Shown here: one piece after another, positions 6,847 through 35,050 of the stretch
How the letters are laid out: the number at the start of each line of letters is the position of its first letter
Position numbering within the stretch: position 1 is the stretch's first letter
NCBI RefSeq assembly: GCF_036588685.1
Contig: NC_086380.1
Coordinates: 6,882,001 to 6,946,000 of the forward strand
Length of the DNA: 64,000 nucleotides
From: Mytilus trossulus
Lineage: Eukaryota
Direction: 5' to 3'
Notes under the pieces: generated by a model
Database searches by the model: none
What the model was told of the DNA's origin: nothing
What the model saw: the letters and a program-made list of their open reading frames with translations, nothing else
Made by a program: the position numbers and the translations under genes

Positions 6847-8028
6847 GTAAAACTTTTAAAAGTCGTAAAATATTTCAAACTAGAAAACTATACAAAATTC
6901 TATCAGGTGTCCGTTCATTTTTAAAAGATGTTGACAATGTTCAACTTTTTCTATCAAAATGATTTTTTGGCAGTACTTCGAACATAAACGCAGATGTCAC
7001 GGTAAAGCGTGCGTATTTACTGAGTTACAATAGAGGAAACATATACCAAAGGGTAATTCAAACAAAAAGTAGAAAAATAAACGGACGACACCATTGCAAA
7101 AACAAATGCAGAAAAAAATCAAAAAGACAATCAAAAGTATACAGAACACAACATAGAAAACTAAAGACTTAACAACAGGAACCGACGGTGAACGCATGTG
7201 CTCCTTATTTTAACTGATTAAAGTTTAGCCATATGTTTTTAAAAATGCAAAAGTTTAATGCATGTGGCCGCAATTGTACCGTTATTGCTCAATTGAGACA
7301 ATTTGATTTCTTTAAAGTCGTATCAAATCAGTTCAATGCTATCTCTTGGGTTTCAATAATTTAACCTTGTCATCTTAAAGCTTTGAAAAACAAGGATTTT
7401 GTAAGATTTAAAAAAGTGTCTTTTTGTACTACATTTTATAATGTAGTAATAAAATTATGAAAAGTAGGGGTTAGTGGGAAATTTTTTGATAGCACTTCAT
7501 GGATAAAACCAGAGGATTCCGAATAACTGACAAAAAGTAAAAAATCAAGATTCGCGAACATCATTAACGCATCAATAACAAAAAAACCAAAAAAAAACCA
7601 AATAATACTGGACCTAAAATGATAACTGTTGCGTGCTTTACCATTATCAAATCAATTCGGACAGCGAAAACGGGAAAGCATACTATAGGCGAAATCTGAT
7701 TGGCGGGATAGTAACACGTTTCATAGGTTATTTATTTCTTTAATCAAAAATAATATATTTTGAATTGGTTCTTGTACGAATAGTACTTTTTCCAAACTAT
7801 ACCAGTTTTAAAACAAAAGGTTTTTTTATTCTATAACATCTATAATTTTGAATTTTAAAATCTGCAATCTAACCTTTTTGTCCACTGTGACTGAACACTA
7901 TTAGTTTCAACAAACATTATTATACACCGCTTTTTAGCTTTCTGACTTATTTATTGCTAACATGGAGATATAAATCAGAACAGTTATAAATTAACTGTTA
8001 AGGTCAATGTTTTAACTGTATATTGCAG

Positions 8029-8143
8029 ACAAATTAATGGTATTGGTGTTTGGTCAATTATAGTACTGTTTTGCTTTCTGAGTGAGAATTCTGATGCTAA
8101 ACGAAGACGAAAAACTGTGTACAGTCGTACAGTGCAAACCAAC
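8029..8143 (+). CDS. Copper amine oxidase copy 1, signal-peptide exon
   Basis: tattgcag|(R)QINGIGVWSIIVLFCFLSENSDAKRRRKTVYSRTVQTN|gtaagt. Hydrophobic core and an S-D-A cleavage site; homologous exon at 22851. Confidence 0.8.
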
Positions 8144-9501
8144 GTAAGTATTTTCCATTCAAATTAATAGAAGTAAACCATACCCTCAAAACATGACGAT
8201 TGAGTCTATTTAAACAAACGCGAAGTTATACTGATTTCCTATTATATTCAATCTAACTAAAATAAGTATCTCTGATTTCTTTATGCTTATTCGACGGAGC
8301 ACGCGAGTCCACATACAAATCTGAATTTTAATTTTTGATTGTATTTGATTATTAAACAGGACAATAATTTGTGAAGTACAGTGAAGGTACTTTTAATATG
8401 CAGAAATGTAGTTCATGCATAAAAGAGACATTAATAACAATACCAAGATATCTTGATGTCAAAAATTTAAATTGCTGGCAGTTTCAGTTAAGGTAGCACA
8501 ATACAAAGATTTTATAACTCCAACAACCAAGTTTTAAAATGCTGTTACTTTCTTAATAATGCTTGAAATTTTATAGAAGTGGTAGTTTTGGATAGCTAAC
8601 AGATCACTCTTTCAAATCAATGCAATGTTAGCATTATGCAACAATTATGACACCAATTATAATGTTAATGGTGTCTAAAATATTTTTCACCAAATTCCCA
8701 TTTTCAAATGAAATTAGCTTCTGCATAGGTATCCCTAGAGGGTTGATTTTATTATATGTTGTTCCTATGGCCATTATCTACAAAAGGGTGTCTCAGATTT
8801 CAGATAGAATGTATAGAACAAATTTTACACCTAATTAAACATTATCTTCTTTTATGTGGTTAGGATGTTTCACTAATTGGAGATTTATGAGAGAATAGAA
8901 TACCATAGAGACAATCTGAGACACCCTTTTGAAGCCCATGATGTGTTGATTAAGATTTCGTTAAAATTTTCTGTATAGTTAAAGAGATGAAAGAGCTAAA
9001 TTCATTCAAGTGACCTTACCCAGATTTTGCCACTAATTACATAATAATTGATTACATAATGATTGCATAATAAAAATATTACATTCATTTAAAAGATTAA
9101 TCTTTTATCTATCTATATGTACCTCTTTTATTATTTTCTATGCATTCATAAGAAAGTTACAGCATTTCAAATGTTAGTGATTGGAAGTAAAAAAATCTTT
9201 GTATTGTGCTACCTTAAATGTCCTGGTGGGGTGAATATAAATTTGAACACAAGTTACTGAAACTTGTTTGTTGCTCAAAGCCGTCTGTTGACCTCTGCAT
9301 GTCTTTGTTTTTTGTGTCGTGTGAGAGCTATTTCATTGACGTATAATCCAAATCTCTTTTCATCCATGTCATCTTATAAAAATCAATTGTTAAAGTTTTG
9401 GAGCAAATACTTGTTTTGTATATTTCAACTGCATGATTCACCATTGACTGCTTCTATCTCGACCATAAATGATTAATAATACATATATATGTATCTTCTA
9501 G

Positions 9502-9562
9502 GCTGTGACGACGAATGGAGACAATTGTTCAAACATAGTGGCTACATCTATGTTTATAAATA
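9502..9562 (+). CDS. Copper amine oxidase copy 1, exon 3
   Basis: cttctag|AVTTNGDNCSNIVATSMFIN(T)|gtaagt, phase 0 to 1, links exon 2 to exon 4 in frame; homologous exon at 23426. Confidence 0.75.
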
Positions 9563-9897
9563 GTAAGTATAGCCGATCTTACATAATCATGCATATGTGT
9601 TATAGAACTATACGTAACATCATCAGGATTTATTTCATAGAGATTATTTACTCCTGTTGTTTGTTATATGTATGCATATGATGGTATGTATGTTTCATAT
9701 GAGCCAACGTAACGCCTGTAGTTTGTAAGTAATTATATGTATAGATTCTAAAACTATAATTATAACTGTGCAACACGATCACACATTGTCATGGTCTTTC
9801 TAGGAACTGACCACATAGTTTCGAGTTATTATATTCAGTGTTCGTGAATCTTAACAATAGAAGAAATAAGGTCACAATGATATATGAAACGTTCAGT

Positions 9898-10244
9898 TTA
9901 AACATATTTATTTATAGTGGATTGGGAAACAAGTTTTGCAACTTATATTAATCCCTTTCCACTTGACGGGTGCGAGTGCTGCCTTGTAGCGGCATTAGCC
10001 TTCTCTTTTTCGAAATCTACAAGGCTGTCTTTAACGTGCAAGAGACATGACTCTCTCTTAATACGGGTCAGTCATTTATCGTCCCGTTCCGACGGACTAT
10101 CATCGTTTCCTCAAGACAATAATCGACAATGGTGTCAAGGGAGAGCCGAAAATCAGTCCCTGAAATTTTCATCCCGGAACGGGAATCGAACCAGGAACCT
10201 TTGTGTTAGTAGTCCGATGTACTAACCACTACACCATGGCTCTC
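9898..10244 (-). mobile_element. tRNA-derived SINE in an AOC copy 1 intron (decayed 3' fragment at ~17845-17953)
   Basis: Minus strand: A box TGGTGTAGTGG, B box GGTTCGATTCC, a ~250-nt body and an AT-rich tail. Confidence 0.75.
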
Positions 10245-10593
10245 TTTAATATGAAATATGAAAACGTTGTAATAATTTACAAAAACCAATTCAACATTTA
10301 GGTTTATTGAAAATCCAATTTATTATTGCTTTTTCGATTCTACAAAGTTAAAAGAATTTCGATTTCGAATCACTATCGTCTTTACATTATTTTGACTGCT
10401 GTATTTTGCATTTCGTAGTCAACCTTGATAAACTCCTCGGAAGCAAAACTTGATACAGAAACTTTGCTATTCTGTTTGTAAAATGTCGTTCTTGCCCTTT
10501 TGAAAAATTATAACATTAACAACAACTTTGATTGGGTTACATGGTTTGTTTAGAATTCGTTCCTGAAGTTTTACTTAAGTACTATTTTTTCAG

Positions 10594-12530
10594 CAAATAA
10601 ATCTATTGGAATATGTGGAAGAAATAGTGAGAACCCTTATGGTAGAATTAACACGAATGAACCGAGGTATCCATCAGTATTTAGTGACCTTACAAGGAAA
10701 GAAATGAGAGGGTTACTTGACTATTTGTATTCAAGTAAAGAATTAAATCTCACCAGATTTAGAAATGCGACTATACGGAGTAACTATCTTTACCTAGCAG
10801 AAATGTTTATGCCATCTAAAGCAGCCGTGTTGAACTATATAGATGATGGTAATAGTAAACCACCACGAGAGGCTCATGTTGTCTTAATAAGAGGTGGAGA
10901 TCCTAAACCAAATGTTCTTGAAATAGTTGTTGGACCACTTCCAGTTCCTAACGGGCACCGACTGTTTCCATATCGACGACAACCAATTCCATTTTTCCAA
11001 AGACCTTTTACATCAATTGATAGCATTTCTCAAAATCTGAAAGAACACATAGACAAAGAATTTGGAAGACCACTTTATGAATTATACGGAGGTAACCTGA
11101 TCAACTGTGGGAACAAATGTTTAGATGTGGGTCTTTTTGCCGAAGTTCCGATATCAAAGGATGATGAAAAAAGCTTTGCCTGGTACAGTTTTAATCAAAA
11201 CTCTGAACATAAACTTTTGAGACCAGTTGATTTTTCGGTATATGTAGAAATCAATTTTCAAATTATCAAAATCTTAAAAATTTGGTTTAATGGAAGACTT
11301 TTTCAAAATTGGAAGCAAGTGAGAGATTATTACATACGAAATAAACGAAAAATTAAGACAATACGTTTTCCTGAAGAATCTGATAATATTTCATTAAGTA
11401 TGCGAAGAAGGGGACAACCACCGTTCTCTAAACCATTACGAAACCCGTCACAGATTTCACCAGATGGAAAACGATACAACATCCAGGGGAGACAAGTGAA
11501 ATACATGTTTTGGAAATTTGATATAAGTATGTCAATATTTACTGGACCACGTCTTTTTGATATAAGTTTCAAAGGTCAACGTATAGCATATGAAATCAGT
11601 ATACAAGAATTAACATCGTTTTATTCTGGATATAAACCAATGGAACACTACTTTAATTTCTTTGATGTTAGATTATTGCTAGGCTTGCAATCAAAGTATT
11701 TAGAACCTGGCGTAGACTGTCCCATTGATGCAACATACATCGGTTCATACTTTGTAGACAGAGGGTCAGACGTTCCAATTTATAATGCACGTTCATTTTG
11801 TGTATTCGAACTGAACACTGGAATGCCGCTGAGACGTCACCACTCGGAGTCCTCTCACAGATTTTATGAAGGAATGGTTAGCGTCGTTTTAACTGTCAGA
11901 ACCATTATAACTGCTGGTAACTATGACTACATTATAGATTATATATTTTACCAGACTGGTGGAATAGAAGTGAAGGTCAGTGCGTCGGGCGTTATAATAG
12001 CAACATATCATGACCGACAAAATCCGTACAGTTTTGAAATCAGTGAAAATTTAATGGGTCTGATTCATCAACATTTATATCACTTTAAAGTTGACATGGA
12101 TATAAAAGGAAGGAATAACATATTTGAAACTCTTGATATTGAAAATGATGTCGTTGCTAGTAATGAAAAACCAAATTCAAAAATTCATCAAATTAAATTT
12201 GCAAGAAAATTGAAGGCTACTGAAAAGCAGGCAGCATATAAACACAACTTTCAGCAACCCAAACTTCTAGTGATATCAAATAATAATATAAAAGATAGAT
12301 TCGGCAACACACCCGGATATCGGATATTGAATACAGGATTGACACATAATATACGACCACCAGGAACAGGAAACGAACCAGGAATCAGTTGGTCAAACTA
12401 TCAAGTTGCTGTTACCAAACGAAAAGAAAGCGAACCGGTAAGCAGTTCTATCTACCAGCACACCAATCCAGAACAACCTATAGTAAGGTTTCAGGATTTC
12501 ATAGACGACGATGAAAACATTGTTGATAAG
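10594..12530 (+). CDS. Copper-containing (TPQ) amine oxidase copy 1, large catalytic exon (AOC1/AOC3-like)
   Basis: Contains the TPQ motif TAGNYDY, Cu ligands HQH (IHQHLYHFKVDMD), the catalytic Asp (FFD), GPRLFDI-F-GQRIAYEIS, GVDCP..A and LRRH. Bounded by ttttcag| and GATAAG|gtaaaa. Confidence 0.95.
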
Positions 12531-12883
12531 GTAAAACACGTAAAAGTTATTTAAAAGTAAAATCACAAAAATACTGCACTTAGAGGAAAATCAATTCGGA
12601 AAGTCCATAATCACATGTCAAATTCAAATAACATAACGCATAAAAAACGAATGGACAAGAACTGTCATATTCCTGACTTGGTACATGCATTTTCAAATGT
12701 ATAAAATGGTGGATAAAACCTGGTTTTATAGCGCTAACCCTCTCACTTTGTTGACAGTCTCATCAAATTTCGTTATAGTTACAATGATGCGTGAACTAAA
12801 CAGACATGATAAATAAAATAGTCGATTGCATACTTAGGCTATAGATGGCTGTAATTATGACTATATATAACCTTATTTCACAG

Positions 12884-13192
12884 GACATCGTGGCATGGAT
12901 TACAATGGGGTTTTACCATATTCCTACGAAAGAAGACCTACCAATGACGCATACTCCTGGAACAGTACAAAGTTTTTTCTTGTTGCCATTTAATTATTTT
13001 GATGAAAATCCAGCAATGTCATCTCGTAATGCAATTAGAATTGACCCTATAGATGTTAAAGGTAAAACAAAGTCAGTGAAGGTTGAACGCTATGGAGTAC
13101 GAAAAGAAAACGCGTGTTCATGTATACCTCCAAAGAATTACAACGACAAGGTGATTATGGACGATCCATGTCTTGTAGTGCAGTGTTTGTAG
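12884..13192 (+). CDS. Copper amine oxidase copy 1, last exon
   Basis: cacag|DIVAWITMGFYHIPTKEDLPMTHTPG...FFLLPFNYFDENPAM...CLVVQCL*. Carries the third Cu His (YHIP); AATAAA follows the stop. Confidence 0.93.
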   Translation, partial: DIVAWITMGFYHIPTKEDLPMTHTPGTVQSFFLLPFNYFDENPAMSSRNAIRIDPIDVKGKTKSVKVERYGVRKENACSCIPPKNYNDKVIMDDPCLVVQCL

Positions 13193-14228
13193 ACAAATAA
13201 ATAAACAAAAACATTTTTTTCAAATGACACGTTCTGTTAAATCATTTATTTTCGTGAATACCAATATTCGTGGATGAAGGGAAACTTGAATGTTCACGGC
13301 ACATTTTGTATGAATTATACAAAAAATACACCATTTTGTGATTAGAAACCAAACAAAATGATAGAGTTGTAAAATAAATTAGGAAAAGATAGCTTTCAGA
13401 CAAGGCTTTGAGAATACATAAAGAAAAGATAGGGTCAGCGTACGTTTTTTTCCCGGCTTAAATACAAAATAGGAAAATTCCATGAAGATTCCTTCAAAAA
13501 ATGCAGTGTTAAAGTTACCTCCCCTTAAAATGTTCATTTGAAAACATTTAAAAACAACCAAATATAATCTTCACTGGTAAAAACAATAAATTTTATAAGT
13601 TATATTCTTATAAATTGGCTGTTGAATGAACAATCACGTTAGATATCTGCATTCCTTCATCAAATTTTGAAAACAAGATAGAAAATCTGGACCTTAGATT
13701 CTCTGTTTTTTACAAACCAAGATGGTGAAAGAAACCAACTTAAGGTAAAGAAACAGTTAAAAGTATATATCACAGAATTTTGGTAAATAGTGACAAACAA
13801 CTTTGGCTTATCATGCTTATTGAACCTTAATTGAAATTTGAAAAAAACAATGCATTTATCTCTTTTAGCATGAGAAATATTACTGACTGAATTTCTATGA
13901 AATTAGTTGAATAATTGTACAAAAAGCTTAAAATCGGTGAAAAATGTTTTTATATTTGTCTTAAAACCAACAAGTAACAACTAGGTTGATGTAACACGAA
14001 GTCTTTGACACTATTATGAGCATAAAACGGAAAAGTATGTATCAAAAACATAAATTTTATATTTATTTTTAAGAACATTTATGTATTTGAAATTTGAGAT
14101 TTGATGATTTTAGGACAAGTTAAGAAAGTTTTTTGCAAATATTATGGGCCTTCTATACACATGTTCACCTCTTTTGAAAGAATTAAATCAGCAATACTAA
14201 AAATAAAAGTTATAAATGCATGCATTTT

Positions 14229-14785
14229 TAACCGGATTTTTGTGACAAAACTGTCGGTTATTGATTTTGGGGATGTATGGCGGGCGGTCGGACAGTCGGT
14301 CGGTCGGGCGGCAGCCAAATGTTGTCCGTGCATTTACCCATGAATTGTTCAACCAAATCTTTTAAAATTTTAATATTTTGTGACTAACAATAAAATGAAG
14401 GTCAAGTTCAAGAATAATGATTTTTGACTTTTACCGTTCAGGAGTTATGGTTCTTGAAAGATTTAAATATGTTGTTACTGATGACAAAATGGAGGTCGAT
14501 TCAATAATGTTGATCTTGACTTTTACTGTTCAGGAGTTATGCTCCTTGAAAGATAAAAAAATGGCGTTTCCATTCATGTTGTTGCATTTACTCATGAACC
14601 ACTCTGAATCCATCTAAGCTCTTTCAAATTTTAATATGTTGATACTGATAACAAAATAGAGGTCAAATTTGATATTGACGATTTTCACTTTCACTGTTCA
14701 TTAGTTATGGTTCTTGTGAAATTGCCAGGACACACATAAATAATAATAAATCCGGTTTGCTGGGGTTGTGACAGCCTCTTCTTTG
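14229..14785 (+). mobile_element. Helentron/DINE-1-like non-autonomous element (HINE)
   Basis: T-rich flank, sub-terminal inverted repeats AACCGGATTT (14230) and AAATCCGGTT (14748), a (GTCG)n microsatellite, internal tandem units containing TTCAGGAGTTATG, and a 3' GCTG..CAGC hairpin. Confidence 0.7.
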
Positions 14786-15194
14786 AACGCCAGTTAATGA
14801 TTGACGAGCTAAAGTTGAATGCAAAATGTTATTAGAAACTGTGACACGATCCATCCTAGTTGACACGATTTCTGAGGACAAATGCAGTGAATCAGATTCA
14901 TGCCACAAGTCAAAAACAACAGTTCTGACATTTAACTGTTGGACACATGATATATATGCTACCGGTTGCGGGAGTTTCTCGCTGCATTTAAGACCTATTG
15001 GCTACCTTCTGCTGTTGTCTGTTCTATGGTCGGGTTGTTGTATCTTTGACACATTCCCCTTCCCATTCTCAATTTCATTTCTTTGAAAAGAAAAATGATT
15101 ATTTTCAACAATTAGTGCGTCTGATAAGCACCGACGAAATATACAAAATGATACTTGAATGCTAGCTAAATGACGGAGGGATACAACAAATAGC

Positions 15195-15510
15195 TATAGG
15201 GGGAGGATTGAGATCTCACAAACATGTTTAACCCCGCCGCATTTTTGCGCCTGTCCCAAGTCAGGAGCCTCTGGCCTTTGTTAGTCTTGTATTATTTTAA
15301 TTTTAGTTTCTTGTGTACAATTTGGAAATTAGTATGGCGTTCATTTTCACTGGACTAGTATATATTTGTTTAGGGGCCAGCTGAAGGACGCCTCCGGGTG
15401 CGGGAATTTCTCAATACATTGAAGACCTGTTGGTGACCTTCTGCTGTTGTTTTTTAATTGGTCGGGTTGTTGTCTCTTTGACACATTCCCCATTTCCATT
15501 CGCAATTTTA
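15195..15510. repeat. High-copy dispersed repeat family 2
   Basis: ...AACCCCGCCGCATTTTTGCGCCTGTCCCAAGTCAGGAGCC...TGACACATTCCCCATTTCCATT. Copies at ~520-645, 14960-15075, 29010-29290 (inverted), 44785-45146, 63010-63340 (inverted). Confidence 0.8.
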
Positions 15511-17988
15511 TTAAACAAAAAAAAAAACATTCCACCCTATCTTTTAGGCACTGTTATTAATTATCCAGGTTATTAAAAAGGATAGTTGTCTCATTAACAA
15601 TCATGCATAATCCGCTTACGCGTACGTTTATTATAAAACTAACTTTTACCACATTCTACAACACATTATGATATATTTTGGTGGATAAACGTCATAGTAA
15701 AACATAAAATTCTGCAAAGGAAAATGCTAAAAATTTTACAAACTCTAATAGAAAAGACGTTTTTTCTGCAGGTAATGGACAATTTTCGATTATACTGTAG
15801 TAAATTAACAAGCTGTGAGCAATACAAAGTGAACATTTTGATTAATACATAATACTAACATTCTTAAAAAAAGACCCAAATCAAACAGATAACTAATAAA
15901 TATTCCGACTTCACCTGCATATTGGATAAACGTTTTTCTTATAATACGGTATTCAAAAGCTTGTATCTACTATTCAGAAGTTATAAAACATCAAAATTGT
16001 CTGAGCAGAAAGTTGATGAGCCAATGTTATGTCAAAGAAAGTCTCGTCCTGTTTCTAAAAAAAATATATCAAAGATATCAATACCTTGTTGATCATAGTA
16101 TACTTGATGGTCTTGAAGTATATAATTTAGGTACGAACTTTTTTAATTTCTATTTTTTTTTTTATCTTATAATGACCCTGATAACGAAGAACACACATAT
16201 GACGACAATCCGTAGTCAAGTGTAAGGGCATCGTACCAATATACGACAATGACAATATACGATCACGTTTAAATTTTGATTGCTAACATTTTTGATTTTT
16301 GATCTGCGCGTCTGGCGTAAATACAAAATTTCAATCCTGTTTAAGAATATCTCCGATGAGCTTACTTCCGAGGTGGATTTGACAACCGAGGATACGAAAA
16401 CAAAGGTTAAAATATTTTTAGATGGAATTGGGGGATAACCAAATACTGAAATTTCAATTGCAAATGATCACTAAGAAGCAAAACAACGATTAAGCTAAGT
16501 TAAATCGTGAAAAGACAAGTCAAGCTTGTAAAGTTCATGATAAAATATTTTCACACAAATCATGCTATAGCTTTTAATAAAAAGATTATTACAGTATTTA
16601 TATATATTGGTTTACAATTTACGTCGAGACAGAGCTTTTACATGCAAAATATCGGACGTTACAATTCATTAACTTTATGCATAAACTTTATGACAAAACG
16701 GAAACCTGAATAAACCGACCAACTGTTCAAATGGGCCCTTTTCATATTTTCATAACCTGCCGGTTTATATAGATTTGACTTATATAGTTAGGACGTTGAT
16801 ATGTACTTATATATACATCCCGCAATTGTGTTGATGTATATTGCCAATTTTTAGTTCTTGTCTGACAGTTTTGTATGTGAATTTTGTCTATAGCCAATTC
16901 TGTGTTTCTTAGTTGCAACGATGTTTTGTTTTTATATAGATTTATATTATATTACAATGTTGACTGCTTTACTCAAATTGTCGACGTCTTTACCGATAAT
17001 GTCTGTTTATTTTGCTCACACTTTGTTATGCATATGATTAAATTATATGCGACTGTCATAGAAATGAGAGGTTTAGCAAGCTATTAAACCAGATTTAATC
17101 CACCATATTCTACATTAAAAATGCCCTGTACAACGCCAGGAATATGACAGTTGATTTTCCTTTCGTTAGATGTGTTTGACCTTTTGATTTTACCAAATTA
17201 GAAGGAACTTTCCTTTTTGAATTTCCTTTGGAGTTTGGTATTTTTGTAATATAATTGTTTGCTAAAATATAATTTCTTTATTATTGCCTTTATTTATACT
17301 CTTTTTGTATCTTTTGACTTTGTTAAGCTTCAGTGAAAATGTATAGTATTTTTTTTAAACTACAAATTTCAGATCATTCACGAGAACAGATTCCTAACCA
17401 AATTTACTATACCATGTATACATACAATTAAAAACTACATTCTGTCAACAACGTTATGCTTAAGTATTTTTGTTGTCAACTTACGTAAATTCACAAATCT
17501 CTCAATGTACATAATGACAATTTCACACATATGTAATTTTGAAATAATTACATTGTCTTGTTCTCAATCTGAAAATAGCGATTTTATTTACCTACTGCAA
17601 CCTTACGCAGATGTTACTCCAACTATTTCGTAACGAGTGTAAATAAATTTTAAGTTTTTACAATGTACGAATATCTAGACTATAATTCATTCTTCAACTA
17701 ATGTTTTTTTTTACTTCACAAACACTGGAATTTGGATAAAACCACCGTTTTCTGTATACCTTTCTATATATAGCTTCATGTTATCCGTACACCTGTATTC
17801 AAGTGTTGAAGTTTTAGCTAACATAAAACCAGAATAAACAAACTGTGGATTGGGAAACCTTTTATACTAACCCCTTTCCACTGTGCTTATGCAAGGACAG
17901 CCTTGTTATTAGCTTGCTCTTGTTCTCAAACTCGGTTTCTTTTACGTGCAAGAATAGTTATCAAAGGTACCAGGATTACAATTAAGTA

Positions 17989-18030
17989 CGCCAGACGCGC
18001 GTTTCGTCTTCATAAGACTCATCAGTGACG
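17989..18030 (-). ncRNA. Minimal type I hammerhead ribozyme with intact core, within a retrozyme/Penelope-like repeat (17957-18155)
   Basis: Minus strand: CGTCA CTGATGA GTCTT-ATG-AAGAC GAAA C-GCGC-GTC^TGGCG. Stem I CGTCA/TGGCG, core CUGAUGA/GAAA, 5-bp stem II, minimal palindromic stem III and a GUC cleavage triplet. Confidence 0.85.
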
Positions 18031-18883
18031 CTCATATCAAAATATTTAAAAAGCCAAACAATTACAAAGTTGAAGGGCATTGAGGATTCAAAATTCAAAA
18101 AAAGTTATGCCGAATACGGCTTAGGTAATCTATGCCTGGGGTAAGAAAATCCCTACTTTATTTCTCGAAAAATAGATATTGTTATCTTGATGGACTTTTC
18201 TTAAATGTACCTTGGAGTTACAGACACAGCTGATCTTTTCTGTATTGACAAATGAAAATTGAAGCCTATAACTTGATAAATGGTCCGAAACCCTCCCCCT
18301 AATCTGCGACAGTAGTTTAACAGTACAACATGAAATTAAACTATGAAAATCAAATGAAAAGGGATTGACTCAAAAGTTTAATTCAAAGTAGAAAATATCT
18401 AACGAAAACAAAGACTGGACATGACAGCGTATATTTAAATCCCACAACAAAAAGACACCAAAGTTTTCACTCACAACATCTGAGAGAAAGTTCAAAAACA
18501 AAAACAAATGATAAAAATTTTGCATCTATGACAAAAATATCAATTAGTACATATTCAACATCAAATGGATTCAGTATCATTACGTCATTAACAGTCAGAA
18601 GTTGATTGATTAGTGTTTAACGCCACTTTCGACACGATTGTTTCGTGGCGATTGGGTTTTTTTGATAGAGGAAGCCGGGATGATTGGAGGGAACCATCAA
18701 TCTTCGTTCTGAAAACTGACAAACAATCATAGTCAATTAAAGATTAGCTCATAATATGTAACCAAAAACTATCAATCTGCCAATAAATGTCAGTAAAGGA
18801 GTTTTCTTGATATTTGTGAACCGGTGTGCGATCGATTGTATTCTTCTATTGCATTAAATATAATTTAACTTGTGTTTGTTAAA

Positions 18884-18940
18884 GTGTGTGTGTGTGTGTG
18901 AGTGTGGGTGTGTGTGTGTATGTGTGTGTGTGTTTGTGTG
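18884..18940. repeat. Imperfect (GT)n microsatellite
   Basis: Directly visible. Confidence 0.9.
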
Positions 18941-19320
18941 GAGGGGTATGGTGTTTTTGTCCGAGTCATCAAAGCGCGACCTTTATATTTTTCGACTCTT
19001 TCAATTAAATTACTTTTAAATTTTGATTCAAAACATTTTTTTTGTCATCTCCTTTCATTTGCTTGACAACAAAATATTTTTTTCTCATAAAACTGGGGGT
19101 CAGAATATGGTTTAAGGACCCCCCCCCCCCCCCATTTTCCCTTGAATTAAATTGTTCGGTACTTTTATATAGATATTATCTTCTGGACTGAGATACCGCA
19201 ATAGTGCACCAAAATGACGTGAATGTCCTTAACTTAAGTTACTTGTTAAACATAGATATACACAATGTTTATTATATATAACATGTATAATAAATCATAG
19301 TTTTGACATACTTTTTTTTA

Positions 19321-19675
19321 AACCCTTCTAGTTAAATAAAAATCGGTCTGACGTTAAGATCAGAATAAAACAAAAATTCGTATGCAAAAATGTATATGTG
19401 TTACATCATGTCGTGTCAAAGATATTTTTTTCAAAACAAAACAATTTACATCAAAGTTGAGATGAATGCAGATAGAATTCTACACAAAAGGCATTCACTA
19501 ATTTCAACCTTCTAGTTATATAAAAATCGGTCTGACGTTAAGATCATCATAAAATAAAAATTCGTATGCAAAAATGTATATGTGTTTCATCATATCGTGT
19601 CAAAGTTTTTTTTCAAAACAAACCAATTTACATCGAAAGGAGATGAATGTGGAAAGATTTCTACACACAAGGATC
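19321..19675. repeat. Tandem duplication, two copies of ~185 bp
   Basis: CCTTCTAGTTA(A/T)ATAAAAATCGGTCTGACGTTAAGATCA...TTCTACACA at ~19324 and ~19508. Confidence 0.85.
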
Positions 19676-20447
19676 TATCAATTATGTTGATAATAAAGTG
19701 CATTTTGAACCTTTCCTATGCATACATCACTGTTAAATAATTAAATGTATCTGAAAAAAAAATGCATTTAGTATAGAAGAAACAGTGTTGAAAATTGAAT
19801 TTTTGAATTTTTATTAGAAGTCAAATTGAGTTTATTACATAGAATGATCAGACTCGTTGAAATTTCCGCACCTTTATGAGTTGTTTATCTGCATGCTTTT
19901 AGCTGAATAACGGAAATCAACGTGTGAAAAGATCTAGTTTGCTCCTGACATACCGTCCGTGTTATTTGTTTACTCGATTGAACTGTTCACATTTGTCATT
20001 TCTGGGTATATATAGCTTACAAAGCTGTATAGATTTTGTTCATTATTGAAAGCATTACTGTTTTTTTTTAACTTCTATGGCATGTGTTCTCTGATGGAGA
20101 GCTGTTTATTTTGGCAATTATGCAACACCTTCTTATTAAAAGAATACCACAGGAAGATCACACCAAACACAAAACTAATGACTGAGCAGCACAAACCTGA
20201 CATTTAACACGGTAAACTATGGAAGAGGAAGCAACTCCTTATTTAATGGTGACAACCTTCGTATCATGTATTACAAATAATTAAGTCTTACAAATTATCT
20301 ATTCAGTATTTTATAACAGCTAAGATTTGCTTTAAACACGGTAACAAAAAGATAAATATCTGAAACTATTTGTTGAATATACTCGCTGAACAAAAGCATA
20401 CTCATATGCTTTTTGTTGGTTTTCATTCATGTACTTCATTTGTACTT

Positions 20448-20499
20448 GCAGTCATCTTGTGCAGTCATTTTGTGCAGTCATCTTGTGCAGTCATCTTGT
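20448..20499. repeat. 13-bp minisatellite GCAGTCATCTTGT x4
   Basis: Directly visible. Confidence 0.85.
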
Positions 20500-21222
20500 C
20501 GGATATGTACATATAAACTGTACTGATACAACACAATTTTACATTAAAGTATGAGTTTCAATCGTCATTTTTATCCAAATACTTATATCGGACTCTTAAC
20601 GACATGTTACATGTAACTATAAAAATATTTTATTTACATTTAAGCTATGATATTGAATATTAATTTCTGTTCACTTCTTCCCCTAAATTCAATGATTTAA
20701 TGAATCAACTGTGGGTTGTTAAGAAATACAAGGACAGCTACAAACCAAGCTTTTGACTATGTGCTACTGTATTAGTACATATTTCAATCTTCAGCTTGAA
20801 CCTATTACGGAATCGAGGAATAAAGGAAACATCTTTCACTTGACTGTGTAGTGATTGCCAATTTGGATTTTATTCAACAGTGAAAACTAAAATAGTTTCT
20901 TCGTAAAGTTAATTGTTTTTTGTCAATCAAGAGTTTGACTGTCCCTCTGGTATCCTTTGCCCCTCTTTTCCATACAATTAGGTTTCTATTTCAATTAATT
21001 CGTGTGCTTATGTAATCTCACTTAATAGAGCGTATCCGTTCTTGTGTAAATCAATACTGTGTTGTTAGGACTTAGTATTGTAAATCAATTTAATTAAGTC
21101 AATCCATCTTATTTGTACGAGTTGTTTGTTTTTTTCAGTATGTAGATATAAATAAAAAATAATATATATATTTTCTCATACAATTTTCTTATTATAACTT
21201 GAGAGTTATCGTATACAACACC

Positions 21223-21227
21223 ATGAG
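21223..21227 (+). CDS. Copper amine oxidase copy 2, start segment (ATGAG)
   Basis: caccATGAG|gtaagt, with good Kozak context and a consensus donor; phase 2 matches the exon at 22851. Confidence 0.7.
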
Positions 21228-22850
21228 GTAAGTTTTAAAAAAGTTATAAAAATCAGTCACAAGATGAATATATTATTATTCGAAATTATAATCAGTAAGA
21301 TATACAAAAATATTAAAATCAACAATAAACCTATCATAGGGGATAACATTAAATGCGGCACTTTATCAAACAACGAATCGAATGGAAATCATTTTCCATT
21401 TTCTGACTGATATAGTATGATAACACAATTTTTGAAATATGTATAACGCAAAACGGGAACGAAAATTTCCAACAATGTCTTCTAACAAACGCGCGTCTGG
21501 CGTATATACAAAATTTAGTCCTGGTATCTATGATGAGTTTATTTAGTAAATTTTCAACAATGACTTCAGTTTTGATAAGGGTTTTTCGATTAAATAGCTG
21601 ACTTTTACTAACTTCCAACATGCAATTAATTAAGATAACAGTAGTTTGTGGATGTTTATTTCTCAACCTATTCGCTACTCTGGTGTCTGTGGTCACGCTA
21701 AAGATTTCAAATTCATAACCTATTTGGCTTTGACTTTATTTAAATTCATGTTTTACAAATGAGTGCTATGTTGACGAAACGGTCGTTTTTTGTACAAAGT
21801 TAAAGACGTCGGATCCTTGATGAGAATAACACACATCACTCAATAAATTAAAAAAAGGGCACTAGTATTCAAAGATATTACATATGACAACTGCTGACAG
21901 TACCCTGACCTTGAAATCCACCATGTTTTTCTTGAAATGTCTTGTACCAAGTCAGAATATTGCAGTTTTTATAAATTAGGTCGTTTTTTTAGTGATTTAA
22001 CTTTTTTCTATGTAAATTGCATTGACGTTTGCTTTTGTTGCACTTCAGTGTTTCGGTTCTTCCTTTGTTTTCCTTTTAACGTTGATATTTTTCACTCGGT
22101 TTTAGTTTAACCCGAATTTGTTTTCTCCTAATCGATTTATGAACAACGGTATACTACTATTACCGTATCTGAGACAATACACGGAGACATGGTTAGAATA
22201 AACTATAAATTTTTATATCGATATTAAATGAAGTTAATATTTATTGATGTTTTTAGAAAAAAATTAAAAACACAAAAATACTGAACTCCGAGGAAAATTC
22301 AAAAAGGAAAATCAAAAATCAAAAGGCAAAATCAAAAGTCCAAACACTTCGAACGAATGGATAACAACTGTCATATCCTGACGTGGTACAGACATTTTCT
22401 AATGCAGTAAATGGTGGATTGAACCTGGTTTTATAGCAAGCTAAACCTCTCACTTTTATGACAGTCCATTACTTTGTCAACGATGCATGAACAAAACAAA
22501 CATACTGAAAGAGTAAAAATGTCAAAAATAGGGGTACAGCAGTCAATATTGAGTTAGAAAAGCTTGACCGAAATGCTTGTTTTGTACTTTTTGTCCAACA
22601 AGACAATAAGTTCCATTGCACATTTTGAAAAAACAACAACATTCTAGCTCCTCACGCAAATGTTGTTTCCCCACAAATATGTACAATGCTTTTCATGTTT
22701 ATATTTATCATCTCAAACTGAACCATTTTTCTGCCAAAGTTTGTATAAATTTATAAAGATATGGAGTTATACATAAGCTTAAATTTAGGTATACACGTAT
22801 TTAAACATTCATTACCCAAACATTAATGTCGTTGCAATCGTTTATTTTAG

Positions 22851-22959
22851 ACCTCTAAATGGTAATGGTTGGTCGTTCATGGTACTTTGTGTATTTCTTT
22901 TTGAGATGTCAGAGGCTTACCAAAGAAAACAAGTTGATGGACGTACGCATAGAACAAAG
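22851..22959 (+). CDS. Copper amine oxidase copy 2, signal-peptide exon
   Basis: ttttag|(R)PLNGNGWSFMVLCVFLFEMSEAYQRKQVDGRTHRTK|gtaaaa, with an S-E-A cleavage site. Confidence 0.8.
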
Positions 22960-23425
22960 GTAAAATTCATATTTATGACATTACTTTTATCAGGAAATAA
23001 ACGAACATAAAACATCAAACTATTCAGGCGCTAATATTTTGATAAAAATATCAGTTTACTTTAAAAACATAAAGACCTGAACATAAACTGCAGAAAACAC
23101 GGAAAGGTAAGCCGAATATGAGCACTCACTCTACAAGTGAAATATGACAAAGTATCCAAACAACTGTTGCTGTTGATTGTATATAATGCATGGCTTGTTA
23201 ATGGACATATAACTTCAAATATTTTTCTTTAGTTTTTTTTCCAAAATAAACAACTCAAATCATTTTATTTGCATACATTTATCTGCATATCCGTAACACA
23301 TTTTTTTGAAACTGGTAGGAAGAAAATACACATGTTTGAAGTTATAACGTCATTTTACTCCAATACCAGCAACTGATGTAACATAACACAGATTTTATCA
23401 ATCATGCATGTTTGTTATCTTCTAG

Positions 23426-23492
23426 GCTAAACAGAGGAATGACGGAAAGTGTATACAACCACAGCTTTACATAAAACCTATGTCATTGAGAA
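23426..23492 (+). CDS. Copper amine oxidase copy 2, exon 3
   Basis: cttctag|AKQRNDGKCIQPQLYIKPMSLR(R)|gtgagt, phase 0 to 1. Confidence 0.75.
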
Positions 23493-25319
23493 GTGAGTAA
23501 ATATAAAATAAGAACATGTTGTATAATTGTCAATGAGACAACTCTCCACAAGTGACAAAATGACACAGAACTACACAAATAATGGTCACCATACAGCCTT
23601 CAGAAATAATCATCTATAAAAGGCCCCGAAATAACCAATGTAAAACAATTCGAAGAAGAAAACTAACGGCCTTATTAATGTACAAAACAAATGAACTAAA
23701 ATACACATATCTGACACAGCAACAAATAACAAACACTAAATTACAGGCTCCTGACTTTGTACAGGCACACACATTCAGATTGTGCCGGATTAAACATGTT
23801 AGTGCAATCCCAGCCTTCCCAGTAACCTGGGACAGTGGTGTAACAGAACAACATAAGAACGAATATGTTTTAACTTCAAATATTTAATATCAATCGTATT
23901 GCCATGCAGTTACAAAATGAAGTTACAGAAGTACTGGAAAATGTATTTATCTATTTAAAAGCTAATTTGATTTTATTATCTGCTGCAAAGTTTGAAACTG
24001 CATTCGTCTGGTATTAAGAGTTTTGGTTATATTGTAGAGTTTAAGTTGTGATAAATTCATTACTATTAAAAAATAAGGTCAAAGTTAATCAAATACTTAC
24101 TACTGGCCGGATTGAAAATAAACAAATCTAAATTGAGTGAAAATGATCTATCAAACAGTACTTCTTTTTCGCAGTGAATCAGTATGACAATTAATCGTGT
24201 TCATTGAAAGACTCAACATAGCGTGAAAATGTATTGTTTTATCTTTAAAGAGGTGTTTATGTTAAATTGATCAGGTCAGGTGCAAAAAGGTTTACTAGAG
24301 ATATATTAACCTATATAAAGCATGTCTATGTCACAACACAAATCAAGTTACTGGTTGTGGTTTTTTTTATCACCCATGAATGTATAAGAGTACTGGGGGG
24401 AAAACTATACTGACGGCTCAATCTTGTTTTATAGAAACCGTCATCTTGCAACATAATGTTAGCAATTTCCGGTTGTTCGGGTTTCAGTGATTTTTGAAAT
24501 GCATATTATAAATTTTTAAAGTCGTTTTTTTGCTTTGTATTTCGAAAGTTTGTGTTTTTGTGTAGTTCATTTATAAATTATATCATGTTACTTCAAGTTG
24601 TTTGTCTCTTTTCTTGTGCCGAAATATGTAACACTGCATGTTAGTGTACAACCAGTGACGTCCATTTACATAATGTTGATTCTGGTATATGGTTGTCTCA
24701 TTGGTGAGCAATCATACACCATTAATTTGTTCTGTTAAACTTTTAATACGACCATATTTGTACTTGCGATAACTACTCTTGTGTGTTCTTTTTATCATCT
24801 GTTTATCATTAATATTTAAGTCCATCGTATTTGTTTGACTCTTTTTAGCTATTAGATTATGACAAATTGTTTATGTTTGTGTGTTCCTTTTATTTATACT
24901 GATTTATTATCAGTTTTGTGGTAGATTCTCGGGCACGTTTTGACATGATTTGTTCGAATTCATTGCCTTTTGGTACAGAATATACATATGGCTTATATTT
25001 GCAATTTATCTTGCAGATGATTATGATAAAATATACTGGTATAAAAAAGAAGATGTGGTATGATTGCCAATGAGACAACTAACCACAAACGACCAAAAAG
25101 ACACAAACATTAACAATTATAGGTCACCTTACGGCCTTCAACAATGAGCAAAGCACATACCGCATATAGTCAGCTCTAAAAGGCCCCATTAAGACAATGT
25201 AAAACAATTCAAACGAGAAAACTAATGGTAGATTGTTTACTAAAACCGTGTCAATGTTGAATTCGTCACGTACGATAATTCCTGATTGCATCTGGTTATA
25301 ATTATTTTTATTTTTTCAG

Positions 25320-27271
25320 GAAACAAATCTGTAGGAGTATGTGGAAGAAATAGTAAGAATCCATATGGTAGAATTAATAGAAATGAGCTGAATTATCCAT
25401 CTGTATTCAACGACCTCACTAGGAAAGAAATGAAGGGTCTGCTTTACTATTTGTACTCAAATAAGGAACTTAATCTCACAAAATTCAGTAATGCGACAAT
25501 CAGGAGTAACTACATTTACTTAGCAGAACTTTATTTGCCACCCAAAGAGGCAGTCTTGAATTATATAGATAATGGATTTACAAAACCACCAAGAGAAGCT
25601 CACGTGATATTAATAAGAGGAGGAGATTCTAAACCAAATGTTATTGAAATAGTTGTTGGACCACTTCCGTTTCCTAACGGTTATCGACTGGTTCCTTATC
25701 GACCACAACCAATTCCATTCTTTCAAAGACCAATTACATCTATTGAAAATATTTCCCAAAAACTTAAGGAAAGAATAAACAAAGAATTCGGGAAGGCACT
25801 TCATGATTTATACGGCGGTACATTTATCAACTGTCGTAATAAATGTTTAGATGTGTCTATCAGCGTTCAGGTTCCGATTACAACGTTAGACGGAAAACGT
25901 TTTTATTGGTACACTTTTTATCAAAACTTTGAATATAGCATTTTAAGACCAATAGATTTTGAAGTTTATGTAGAAACCCGTTTTGAAAATTTTAAGATCT
26001 TGAAAATTTGGTTTTATGGAAGAATTTTTGAAACATGGAACAAAGTGAGAGATTTTTACAGAAGAAATAAACTCGTCTTTAAAAAAATACCTTTTCCAAG
26101 AGGATCGATGAATATTCCACTTACTATGAAACGAAGGGGGAATCCTCCCTTCTCAAATCCATTACGAAATCCTTCACAAATTTCTCCTGATGGAAAAAGA
26201 TACAACATCAAAGGAAGGAAAGTAACGTACATGTTTTGGGAATTTGATATAGGTATGTCAATAATTACAGGACCACGTTTATTCGATATAAGATTCCAAG
26301 GTCAGCGTATAGTATATGAAATTAGTCTACAAGAATTAACCTCTTTTTATTCTGGATACAAACCAACGGAACAAAACTTTCGGTTTTTCGATTCAAGATT
26401 TTTGCTAGGCTTAAGAGCAAAATATTTAATGCATGGGGTTGACTGTCCAAATGATGCAACATATATAAGTACATACTTTTTAGACGGAAGCTCCGACACT
26501 CCAGTTTATAATTCACGTGCGTTTTGTGTTTTTGAACTTAACACGGGACTCCCATTAAGACGTCATCATGGGTATTCTTCAACTTCGTCTCACAGATTTT
26601 ACGAGGGTATGGTTAGTGTTGTATTAACTGTCAGAACTATCATCACCGTCTTCAACTATGATTACATTATAGATTTTATATTTTATCCCACTGGTGGAAT
26701 AGAAGTAAAGGTCACTGTTTCCGGTGTAATAATCGCAGCATATCATGGACGTAAAAATCCATACGGTTTCGAAATTAGTAAACATTTAATGGGCCTGATT
26801 CATCAACATTTATTTCATTTTAAAGTAGATATGGACATAAAAGGAAAATTCAACAGATTCGAAACAATTGATATTGAAAATGATGCCGTTTCGAATCCTA
26901 CATATACAAATTCAGATTCCAACATTCAACAATTGAGATTTGAAAGAAAATTGAAAGTAACTGAGAAGCAGGCCGTATATAAACACAACTTTAAGCAACC
27001 TAAATACCTTGTGATATCTAATGATAATATAAAAGATAAATTCGGCAACACACCCGGTTATAGAATAGTAAATAAAGGTATGACATATAATATATACCCG
27101 ACAGGAACAAGGTACGAACCAGGAATCACTTGGTCGCGCTATCAAGTTGCTGTTACCAGACGAAAGGATAATGAGCCGGGAAGCAGTTCCATATACCAAA
27201 CTAATAAGCCAGATGAGCCTGTAGTAAGATTTCAGGATTTTATTGACGATGATGAAAATATTGTTGACAAG
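25320..27271 (+). CDS. Copper-containing (TPQ) amine oxidase copy 2, large catalytic exon
   Basis: Contains TVFNYDY, IHQHLFHFKVDMD and FFD; collinear with copy 1. Bounded by ttttcag| and GACAAG|gtaaaa. Confidence 0.95.
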
Positions 27272-27624
27272 GTAAAACGATATTTATTTTTTATAATAAT
27301 GAAAGACCACGTGTAGTTTTTCTTTTTTTTATGTTCAATATTTGTCGTCATACGCAATGTTTTGGAAAATGAAATCAAATTGCCAGTTTTACAGTAATAA
27401 GGGGTGTCTCTTTTTAGGCACAACAAATGATTAATACTTTCCCCCCCAAAAAATTTAAGAAATCGCTAAATTTTTACTAATAAGACAATAACGAAACCGC
27501 CAATAAAGATTTTTTTGACAACAAGATAGATAAAAACAATGCGAATAATATAACAGCAAAATATCAACATGTCATGTAAACTTTTAAAACGTAAATTGGC
27601 ATGGCCTAGTTATTTAAATAAGAT

Positions 27625-27766
27625 GACCTTATTGACAATGACGAAATTGTTGATGGATAAACGTTACGGTGTAGGAAATGTCATTAATTGTATAACTCTG
27701 CAGTATAAATTTGACCAAGTGAATTATGATTCTTGTCTTATCGTGGAATGTTGAGAGCCGAATAAA
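27625..27766 (+). pseudogene. Collapsed amine-oxidase relic inside the last intron of copy 2
   Basis: gaccttattgacaatgacgaaattgttgat (DLIDNDEIVD, resembling the exon 4 end DFIDDDENIVD) is fused to acgttacggtgta..cattaattgtata.. (RYGVGNVINCI...CLIVEC*, resembling the exon 5 end); AATAAA at 27761. Confidence 0.75.
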
Positions 27767-28409
27767 CGTAACAGTTATATGTTGATATGTTTTATATTTT
27801 TAAAAAACTGATTTGATTGGGTCAGAAAGAGTCATAGGTTTACTGAACATGGTTGATATAAAATTCTCTTTTAAAAATGCTTATCATTTGATTTTCTGAT
27901 TTTACAATACAAATTTCATTGTATATTATTTACTAAAATGTAAAATGACAAAAAGAATCCTTGAACAATCCAAAACGGAGAGTCCATCATCAAATGTTAA
28001 AATCAAAAGATCAAACACATAAAATTAAAAGAAAAGAACTTTCATATTCCTGACTCAAAAGATGCATTTCATTATGCTGAAAACAGTGGATTAAACCTGG
28101 TTTTATATTTACCTATCTTACACCAGACTTGTATGTCACACTTTTTTTATAGTCGCTTTAGCAGAACTCAGATTAAGGTTATAAATCGAAAGGTTATGTA
28201 AGCGACGGCGTGGAATCTATTTTCAAGATTTATTCAAACTAACTAGCGAATACAAAATAATCAAATCACACTTTTAGATTTTAACAATATGTCAGAATAT
28301 CGCAGAATTCATAGATATAGTCTGATTTAAACATTTGTATTAAAAGTTTAAGATAAATGAAAGTCATTCATTGATAACCTTAACTATGTCTATAATGATA
28401 TAATTACAG

Positions 28410-28769
28410 GACATCGTAGCATGGATTGCAATGGGATTGTACCATATACCAATAAAAGAAGACCTACCAGTCACTCATACTCCAGGTGAAAGTCGCAGCT
28501 TTTTCTTGCTACCATTCAATTACTTTGATGAGAATCCAGCAATGGCATCTCGTAACGCAATACGAATAGACCCGATAGACATCGAAGGTAAAACGAAGTC
28601 GCTGAAGGTAGAACGTTACGGTGTAAGTGATGACATTAATTGTATACCACCAAAATATAATTATGACCAATTGATGAAGAGAAATCCTTGCCAAGTTGTG
28701 GAATGTTTGGATCCAGAGAAAAATAATAGAGTTAAATCACATGTTTTCCAGGAATTTCGTTGGCAATAA
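28410..28769 (+). CDS. Copper amine oxidase copy 2, last exon
   Basis: ttacag|DIVAWIAMGLYHIPIKEDLPVTHTPG...PFNYFDENPAM...FQEFRWQ*. Confidence 0.93.
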   Translation, partial: DIVAWIAMGLYHIPIKEDLPVTHTPGESRSFFLLPFNYFDENPAMASRNAIRIDPIDIEGKTKSLKVERYGVSDDINCIPPKYNYDQLMKRNPCQVVECLDPEKNNRVKSHVFQEFRWQ

Positions 28770-28796
28770 TAAACAAAGCTAACTAGGATAATTAAG

Positions 28797-28876
28797 AGTT
28801 ATCAAAGGTACCTTGCTTATACTTTTGATACGCCACACGAGTGTTTCGTCTACATAAGACTCACCAGTGACGCTCA
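28797..28876 (-). mobile_element. Retrozyme-family copy with mutated hammerhead; body continues at ~29288-29435
   Basis: CGTCA CTGGTGA GTCTTATGTAGAC GAAA CACTCGTG TGGCG: a core A>G change and loss of the GUC triplet. Confidence 0.7.
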
Positions 28877-30104
28877 GAATATATTACATTATAAGCATAT
28901 ACAGATGCAAATCATTCACATTTATAATTATATAATTTTGTTCCGTTTTTGACATTTCGTTTACATCCTCATTATAAGATGTATATATTATACAATCTAC
29001 ATGACACATATGGAAATGTGGAACGTGTCAAAAAACAACCCTACCATACAACAGACAACAGCAGAAGGGCACCAACAGGTCTTCAATGCAGCGAGAAATT
29101 CACACACCCGGAGGCGTCCTTCAGCTGGCCCTAAAACAAATATATATACTAGTTCAGTGATAATTAACGCCATACAAAACTCCAAATTGTACACAAGAAA
29201 CTAAAATTAAAAATAATGAAAGACTAAAAAAGGCCAGAGGCACCTGACTTTGGACAGGCACAAACATGCGGCGGGGTTAAACATGTTTATGCCTAGGATA
29301 AGAAAATCTTCAGTATTTCGATTAATAATAGTACGTACATTTGCAAGTAGTTTATATTTAAAAATGACCATATAATGAAAGTTATGTCAATATCGCAGTG
29401 CTGACTACTGGGCTGGTGATACCATTGGGGACGAAGAGATCGTCAGCATGTCTTTAGAAAACAAACTTTAACATCATAAACTTCAGTATTGTCTGACATT
29501 TACCATATGGATACATATTTGGAAGAGTAAAGTTTAATCTAAAAGCTTGAATATTTGGAATTGGAAGATTTGGTAAGGCATGTTTCCGTTCGTCCTATTT
29601 ATTAACAAAATACAAATATTATATCATTAGATATGAAATGAAACAAACAACATTAAATACCCCAAAAGTGCTGTCTTGATAATGAAAAAGATACAAAGGA
29701 GCAGTTAAATACACAAAAAGAAATACACACATCTCAATTATTAAAAGAAATACCAGACACCAGTCTTTTTTGTCTCAATGATGAAGGAGATACACATAGG
29801 CATTAAAAAAAATCGATGATAGCCTCTGAAATATACAGCACCATGACTTAAAACAATTACCACACAGTAGTCTATGAAACATGATATAGTAAACACATCG
29901 GCAAAAGGGTGAAATATGCCAGAGGGACAGTCAAACTCATAGATCGAGTTAAGTTATATCGAAGACTACCAACGTAGAAACTATAACAATTCGGCAGTTA
30001 ACGCTGGCTTGTTGAATATTAGATAATAAGTAGGACAATGTCAAAAAATTTCCTTATCAAGCTTACAGTGTGTGTGGATTACAAAATCAATCGACTTAAA
30101 CAAT

Positions 30105-30453
30105 ATGGCTACAAGGGTCATAGTTATACTGTTTGTAGAAGCATTTGTGATTGTAGCTTTAGCAAAATCAGAAAAGGTCGATCTGTATTCTGAAATTTTA
30201 CAAATTCACAAAACGTTGAAAGCGCAAGGAAATGAAATCTCTCATTTAAAAGACACGGTTAAGAATCAACAAACAGAAATTGAAAGACTCAATGCTATTG
30301 TAACAAATCTGCAGACAGTAATCACAGAAACTAATATTGGAGCTATCCAAACTGACCAGGACAGCATGACACATGACAACGGAAGTAAGCCTGAAAGTGT
30401 GCAAGTCTGGGACGAAGGACATCATGATGAAATTGAGAAGGAAAAACCAAGAG
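30105..30453 (+). CDS. C1q-domain-containing protein A, exon 1 (signal peptide + coiled coil)
   Basis: MATRVIVILFVEAFVIVALA signal peptide, then heptads LYSEILQIHKTLKAQGNEISHLKDTVKNQQTEIERLNAIVTNL. Ends AGA G|gtaaat (phase 1). Confidence 0.88.
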
Positions 30454-34812: not shown

Positions 34813-34890
34813 TATTATTATTATTTATTATTATTTACAGTGCTTATATAGCGCTTATCTAAATAAACATTTACTCTAAGCGCTTTACAA
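34813..34890 (-). mobile_element. 3' tail of an L2-clade LINE or of a SINE that uses its tail
   Basis: Minus strand: TTGTAAAGCGCTTAGAG...ATAAGCGCTATATAAG...(TAA)n, the typical L2 3' stem-loop plus simple-repeat tail. Confidence 0.6.

Positions 34891-35007: not shown

Positions 35008-35050
<43 letters not shown>

Follow-up and report, generated by a model that had tools for sequence, protein, structure and literature searches.

What kind of element left a hammerhead ribozyme motif with a complete core between two copper amine oxidase genes of the mussel Mytilus trossulus, and what could the RNA of this locus still do? The motif lies on the minus strand at positions 17988–18031 of the 64,000-nucleotide stretch of contig NC_086380.1 analysed here (the window), where an earlier note, made from the sequence alone, had pointed it out. 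The answer developed below is that the repeat fragment carrying it (17953–18174, minus strand) belongs to a high-copy mussel repeat and is very probably a dead-end insertion, truncated at its 5' end, of the published Mytilus retrozyme without long terminal repeats (non-LTR retrozyme). The hammerhead locus is an ordinary member of an already known class.

Reading from 18030 to 17989, the minus strand consists of the segments CGUCA, CUGAUGA, GUCUU, AUG, AAGAC, GAAA, C, GCGC, G, UC and, past the predicted cut, UGGCG. Every hammerhead core nucleotide is found there, in type I order, as the earlier note had stated. The 5' strand of stem I (18026–18031) pairs with 17988–17993; the five base pairs already described, one of them U-G, are lengthened to six by a closing G-U. 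It is followed by the core segment CUGAUGA (C3–A9, 18019–18025), by stem-loop II (18006–18018, with a copy-specific change at 18010 and a subfamily-variable position at 18013), which has a 5-bp stem in this copy, and by the core segment GAAA (G12–A15.1, 18002–18005). Stem III with its loop (17995–18002) has, as previously recognized, 2 bp capped by the palindrome GCGC, and forms the self-complementary 8-mer ACGCGCGU, which could pair between two molecules. Both hammerhead numbering and the Rfam alignment bear out the earlier prediction of a scissile bond directly after the GUC triplet, between 17993 and 17994.

In a 1.2-kb search, all 45 positions of Rfam model RF00163 (Hammerhead_1) aligned at 17988–18031. 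The comparison with Rfam models that had been suggested thus gave a full-length match, with 33.0 bits and an E value of 4.3e-6, but one that narrowly misses the gathering score of 34. Since the hammerhead is 1 bit short, an Rfam scan of the whole 64-kb window at the gathering threshold returned no matches. The six further Rfam matches listed for the 1.2-kb search (E 0.11–8.1) were far under their cut-offs and were judged to be chance. When the window was scanned with a type I descriptor, 17988–18031 was the only match with a C3–G8 core; the strict descriptor found matches in 4 of 200 shuffled windows, and the hammerhead 17-mer is matched at six places in the window against 0.01 expected. Relaxed type I loci at 49817–49900 and 17832–17933 have a U3–A8 core and weak stems, and were dismissed as chance, as was a type III pairing into which the 17988–18031 core can also be folded (shuffle means 1.4 and 0.15). 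Stem II is lacking at 36015, where CTGANGA..GAAA occurs a second time. The predicted minimum-energy fold is not the hammerhead (z +0.8), and energy folding does not reveal the motif (z +0.65 to +1.28).

The sequence features of canonical type I hammerheads, CUGANGA, GAAA, an NUH triplet and a G10.1–C11.1 pair, are all present. Helix sizes of 6, 5 (4 in the family) and 2 bp with a GCGC loop fit the definition given in the available part of PMC4209133, which is an open helix I of ∼6 bp, a helix II of ∼4 bp and a helix III of 1–2 bp with a palindromic loop of 2–4 nt. The same portion of that paper describes the minimal hammerheads of Penelope-like elements (PLEs) as having helix III absent or reduced, a helix II of 7–8 bp and an extra nucleotide after position 9. 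With no extra nucleotide and helices of 6, 4–5 and 2 bp, the motif is canonical by these definitions, and the label 'minimal' under which it had first been described does not hold. We conclude, on sequence grounds, that the predicted hammerhead is a genuine canonical type I motif.

The family to which the motif belongs was traced with a profile built solely from three loci outside the window (L001–L003), which came from an exact-pattern scan of metagenome contigs; exact-pattern scans of viral contigs and of genome contigs gave no loci. The profile matched the window nine times (E 1.8e-44 to 7.5e-6) and the reversed window not at all. L002, the closest copy, aligns to 18174–17953 with 90% identity over 222 bp, and by this alignment the repeat spans 17953–18174 rather than the 17957–18155 originally given. 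The contig of L002, from a marine metagenome, continues, at 700–830, into coding-looking sequence that presumably resembles an OmpA-type C-terminal motif, and it may be chimeric.

All eight other fragments in the window have a broken core or half a motif, and 17988–18031 is the only intact core among the nine, as the earlier note had held. The core is broken in the copies at 38314–38535 (minus strand; CUAAUGA, stem II disrupted), 28793–28879 (minus; CUGGUGA, triplet GUG), 45661–45745 (plus; CCGAUGA, GAGA and a shortened stem III) and 39509–39615 (minus). Only the hammerhead 3' half is left at 21487–21545 and 16306–16364 (both plus; E 7.5e-6 for the latter); it is deleted at 48705–48990 (minus), a copy that continues beyond the usual 3' end. 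The copy at 21706–21826 (plus; E 3.9e-8) is strongly decayed, and 29288–29461 (minus) has no hammerhead but comes from further upstream in the unit; it is separated from the 28.8-kb copy by ∼400 bp of other sequence. This other sequence, at 28880–29287, splits the 28.8/29.4-kb retrozyme copy, probably as a nested insertion; it includes a member of a different repeat family at 29034–29291, which also occurs at 15.2–15.5 and 44.9–45.1 kb. A candidate tenth copy at 61.3 kb gave no alignment and was dropped.

Contigs of four public runs were aligned to 17600–18500 (901 bp) at 80% likeness. Matching records numbered 5835 of 2,034,100 (run X1), 383 of 357,989 (X2), 893 of 434,879 (X9) and 210 of 88,990 (X22), and their depth is concentrated on 17953–18159. 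In three of the runs, presumed to be RNA, the contigs lie on the repeat and hardly on its unique flanks, and they show neither strand nor transcript ends. In all four runs the core positions show no variant at or above 10%. Position 18010 has another base in 97–99.9% of the family depth in every run, indicating that the fifth stem II pair is private to the 17953–18174 copy; the family form of stem-loop II is a 4-bp stem with a 5-nt loop, and the 5-bp stem II described earlier is therefore correct for this copy but not for its family. A variant at 18013 makes up 20–29% of the depth, splitting the family roughly 3:1, and two 3'-end types can be seen in the alignment of family copies. Two subfamilies are thus visible, in agreement with the report for M. 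galloprovincialis. An unrelated multi-copy repeat at 18288–18372, ∼115 bp upstream of the element, also has raised depth, with matches at 36.9, 43.3, 23.8 and 58.3 kb.

The two ends of the fragment behave differently. Among the best-supported loose contig ends at 17953 (130, 16, 38 and 3 contigs), agreement is 0.39–0.63, and such disagreement points to different flanks; among those at 18159 (28 and 7 contigs) it is 0.71 and 0.88, indicating that the family sequence carries on upstream. In 10 of 10 copies with a usable 3' half (seven in the window and three outside), the alignment stops a median 40–55 nt past C17; the 48.8-kb and 21.8-kb copies, in which the cleavage site is deleted or decayed, were omitted from this comparison. 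In the 17953–18174 copy, the segment between the cleavage site and this common terminus is 41 nt long (17953–17993). The copies that share the terminus end at 17953, 38314, 28793, 45745, 39509, 21545 and 16364 in the window and include L001–L003 outside it. Majority letters beyond 17953 agree for a further 3–4 bases in all four runs, and the common 3' end may be staggered. The run-on 48.8-kb copy has an AC-rich stretch at the usual 3' end, loosely reminiscent of the start site in the Anolis PLE, which is AC-rich too.

Beyond the usual 3' end, the 48.8-kb copy continues with sequence that the 29.4-kb fragment has in its upstream part. The alignment between the two scores 64, a value reached by none of 1963 control windows (maximum 36.5). 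Anchor distances of 91, 96 and 177 bp, taken from these two decayed permuted copies and the 17953–18174 copy, add up to a unit of ∼364 bp, of which 17953–18174 is ∼61%. This inferred length lies within the 350–390 bp published for the repeats that hold the ∼5000 type I hammerheads of a mussel genome (PMC7229834). Other features reported for the Mytilus retrozyme are likewise found at this locus: the host is a Mytilus, the hammerhead is of canonical type I, and the repeat that holds it is non-coding and low in GC. The host, the hammerhead type and the inferred unit size thus support the earlier assignment to the retrozyme-type hammerheads of mussels.

Several observations weigh against this assignment. 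The unit length is derived from two decayed copies, and membership is judged from host, size, hammerhead type and subfamily pattern, the published retrozyme being compared by description only. No tandem array of the unit was found in 13000–25500, in the three outside loci or in any of the window's 20 largest listed direct-repeat families. Nor was a target-site duplication found, the best flank matches being 9-mers with one mismatch. Active retrozymes are defined by tandem units with at least two intact hammerheads, and 17953–18174 is a solo fragment; in the part of a 2026 preprint available to us, elements with two intact motifs alone are counted as active and monomers are regarded as probable non-mobile offspring (10.64898/2026.07.22.740005). 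We conclude that the missing tandem units lower the status of this copy as an active retrozyme, not its derivation from one.

Is the core of this copy intact because it has been selected? With 7.4% divergence, 17953–18174 is the least diverged long copy, the others above 60 bp being at 13–33%. At divergences of 4.5–7.4%, the probability that 15 core sites survive by chance is 0.3–0.5, and the intact core therefore needs no selection. Compared with L002, differences are found at 1 of 44 hammerhead sites and at 15 of 173 other sites; this trend (2% versus 9%) is in the direction expected under selection and argues against the conclusion drawn here, but it is not significant (Fisher p = 0.20). 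The core is very probably intact through the youth of the copy, not through selection, and the conservation trend is explained by chance.

How might such a copy arise? Tandem arrays of retrozyme units are transcribed and self-cleaved to monomers, which are ligated to circles; in mussel tissues the circular RNAs are abundant, ligation is by a tRNA-type ligase, and PLEs have been proposed as the mobilisers (PMC7229834). For the PLE of Anolis, the accessible part of PMC11167929 describes reverse transcription as beginning internally, downstream of the hammerhead, which fixes the genomic 3' ends, and as not needing hammerhead cleavage. Nearly all copies end 40–55 nt beyond the cleavage site, with the sequence on either side of the scissile bond retained. 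From this we tentatively propose, at somewhat less than even confidence, that retrozyme RNA, as a circle or as an uncleaved multimer, carries a defined cis-signal at which a reverse transcriptase of Penelope type begins internally, to copy back through the ribozyme. For the present copy, the enzyme would have been primed on target DNA with a retrozyme RNA, circle or uncleaved multimer, as template; copying would have begun ∼41 nt downstream of the cleavage site, passed through the hammerhead and halted after ∼220 nt, leaving 17953–18174. A transcript of this insertion, if made, is predicted to be cut once without release of a circle, because with only one ribozyme the copy cannot excise a monomer or a circle.

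The fixed 3' end past the hammerhead combined with 5' truncation is itself a PLE trait (PMC11167929 and PMC8557442, each in part), and it raises the alternative that 17953–18174 derives from an autonomous PLE, as its 5'-truncated end (pseudo-LTR), with a terminal sequence shared between that PLE and the retrozyme. Such sharing would have precedent in Xenopus, where 24 of 57 retrozyme families are homologous to known transposable elements, 21 of 22 of them PLEs, according to the portion of 10.64898/2026.07.22.740005 that we could consult. At the mussel locus, however, the hammerhead is canonical and not of the minimal PLE form; the sequence downstream of one copy is the sequence upstream of another within ∼364 bp, which suits a unit that is small and circular or tandem but not an element of 3 kb; and no Pfam reverse transcriptase or GIY-YIG match was found in six frames of 13201–25301 (stops read as X), one unrelated family being listed at E ≤ 0.1. 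We consider this alternative improbable. Still less credible, and in our judgement close to negligible, is co-option of the hammerhead to cut an antisense transcript between the amine oxidase genes and thereby insulate or regulate both. That the only intact copy among nine stands here could be read in this way, as could the contigs of run X22 that approach or span both junctions with 3–7 other letters, by which another haplotype may carry the insertion as well, although this run could be related to the source of the window. The intact copy is also the least diverged long one, and chance would be expected to leave it intact; lying antisense to the two genes, it cannot cut the pre-mRNA of either; and its change at 18010 falls where the family keeps the other base at 97% or more. 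Derivation from the retrozyme by truncation accounts for the locus better than either.

A further question is whether the RNA of the truncated retrozyme copy would cut as a monomer. The earlier note had considered a partner RNA in trans to be probably needed, a view disfavoured by two reports: a single-hammerhead genomic repeat of M. galloprovincialis, which may be of another subfamily, cleaves co-transcriptionally at ∼0.1 per min (PMC7229834), and monomer cleavage is stated for most type I hammerheads of invertebrates in the available part of PMC7761336. We therefore lean towards predicting monomer cleavage by 17953–18174 RNA, if it is transcribed, perhaps more slowly than in the family, since loop 2 is changed. 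Three points tell against monomer activity. The active fold lies 4.9–7.5 kcal/mol above the ensemble; an axolotl hammerhead with the same helix III of 2 bp plus a tetraloop reached only 22% cleavage within 1 h in monomeric form and was more active when dimeric (PMC7229834); and helices III of 1–2 bp impede monomer cleavage according to part of PMC4209133. They bring in the alternative that the hammerhead is competent solely as a dimer with an abundant family RNA, paired via the palindromic stem III, which we regard as rather unlikely. The intermolecular duplex of the 8-nt palindrome is calculated at −13.3 kcal/mol versus +2.4 kcal/mol for hairpin III of the monomer alone, short palindromic helices III favour dimers (PMC4209133 and PMC6765202, both in part), and partner RNAs are abundant in mussel tissues (PMC7229834). 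Set against this are the monomer activity described for invertebrate type I motifs and the ∼0.1 per min of the mussel repeat, although a co-transcriptional assay is compatible with intermolecular dimers. The folding gap, in energies that take no account of Mg2+ or core contacts, is matched by 4.4–6.8 kcal/mol in the three outside copies with intact cores, and the 17988–18031 copy is thus not unusually misfolded. The choice between monomer and dimer concerns kinetics only, and a dimer is compatible with origin as a truncated retrozyme.

The surroundings of the copy give no sign that its location between the amine oxidase genes has a function. The window has a GC content of 29–40% and, besides the two copper amine oxidase genes, holds three exons with a C1q domain. 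Gene 1 (8027–13192, plus strand; Pfam PF01179/PF02727, 95% identical to a Mytilus edulis protein) has coding exons at 8027–8146, about 9502–9573, 10596–12527 and 12869–13192. Gene 2 (22849–28769, plus strand) has coding exons at 22849–22962 (the first located, E 1e-5), 25322–27271 and from 28407 onward, and the best matches of its protein are from M. coruscus (88%), M. californianus (76%) and M. edulis (73%). On either side, ∼4.8 kb separate the hammerhead from the closest coding exon, and the hammerhead, being antisense to both genes, cannot cut their sense pre-mRNAs. A comparison of the regions upstream of the two genes showed no homology besides repeats and did not locate an ATG-bearing first exon of gene 2; since that exon was not located, the hammerhead may lie within an antisense intron of gene 2.

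Elsewhere in the window, the amine oxidase genes appear as tandem paralogues, ∼79% alike in a 2-kb exon, and a weak match to the C-terminal 40 amine oxidase residues lies at 27641–27760, in the last intron of gene 2. Duplicated C1q-domain genes occupy 30030–35800 and 41046–46782, with upstream exons that resemble signal peptides and coiled coils; the C1q exon at 44085–44525 is without ∼11 residues that are present in the 46345 copy. Two arrays of 20-bp units (32880–33225 and 34114–34438) stand in opposite orientation around ∼1 kb, a foldback-like arrangement, and exons at 53107–57350 on the minus strand encode EGF-like domains and a stretch rich in Thr and Pro.

The hammerhead locus itself carries little weight: ∼5000 such hammerheads are reported for mussels, and a sizeable share of 64-kb windows should contain an intact solo fragment. 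More useful, perhaps, is the 3' end that the copies have in common: it links non-LTR retrozymes to the internal priming shown in vitro for a PLE, and it is a concrete sequence to test as a priming signal. If the proposal of internal priming is true, the copy-end site would identify both the partner PLE and this signal. A 2020 review states, in its available part, that no conserved motif yet reveals the priming signal (PMC7761336). In the main texts consulted we did not find such a common 3' end described for mussel retrozymes, and the supplement of PMC7229834 may show it.

The closest known system is the retrozyme of M. galloprovincialis described by Cervera and de la Pena in 2020 (PMC7229834; GenBank MN642551–MN642576), which has two similar subfamilies. 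The repeat studied here has in common with it a Mytilus host, a canonical type I hammerhead, two subfamilies, low GC, high copy number and no open reading frame, and its ∼364-bp unit falls inside the 350–390 bp. It differs in that 17953–18174 is solo and 5'-truncated, with one hammerhead whose loop 2 has a copy-specific change; mussel hammerheads are reported to be without most of the archetypal loop 1–loop 2 contact nucleotides (PMC7229834). Compared to the consensus of RF00163 (clan CL00010), the core and the stem III segment are identical, whereas stem I and loop 2 of 17988–18031 differ. With the minimal hammerheads of PLEs, as far as the available part of PMC4209133 describes them, the motif shares type I topology, a palindromic stem III region and dispersed solo copies; it has none of their distinguishing traits, and no open reading frame for a reverse transcriptase or endonuclease is nearby. 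The Poseidon PLE of Anolis carolinensis resembles the mussel family, in the accessible part of PMC11167929, in the fixed copy ends past the hammerhead and in keeping both flanks of the cleavage site. However, Poseidon is autonomous and its reverse transcription starts 85–92 nt past the cut (cut at +26, starts at +111 to +118), whereas the mussel copies encode no protein and end 40–55 nt past the cut.

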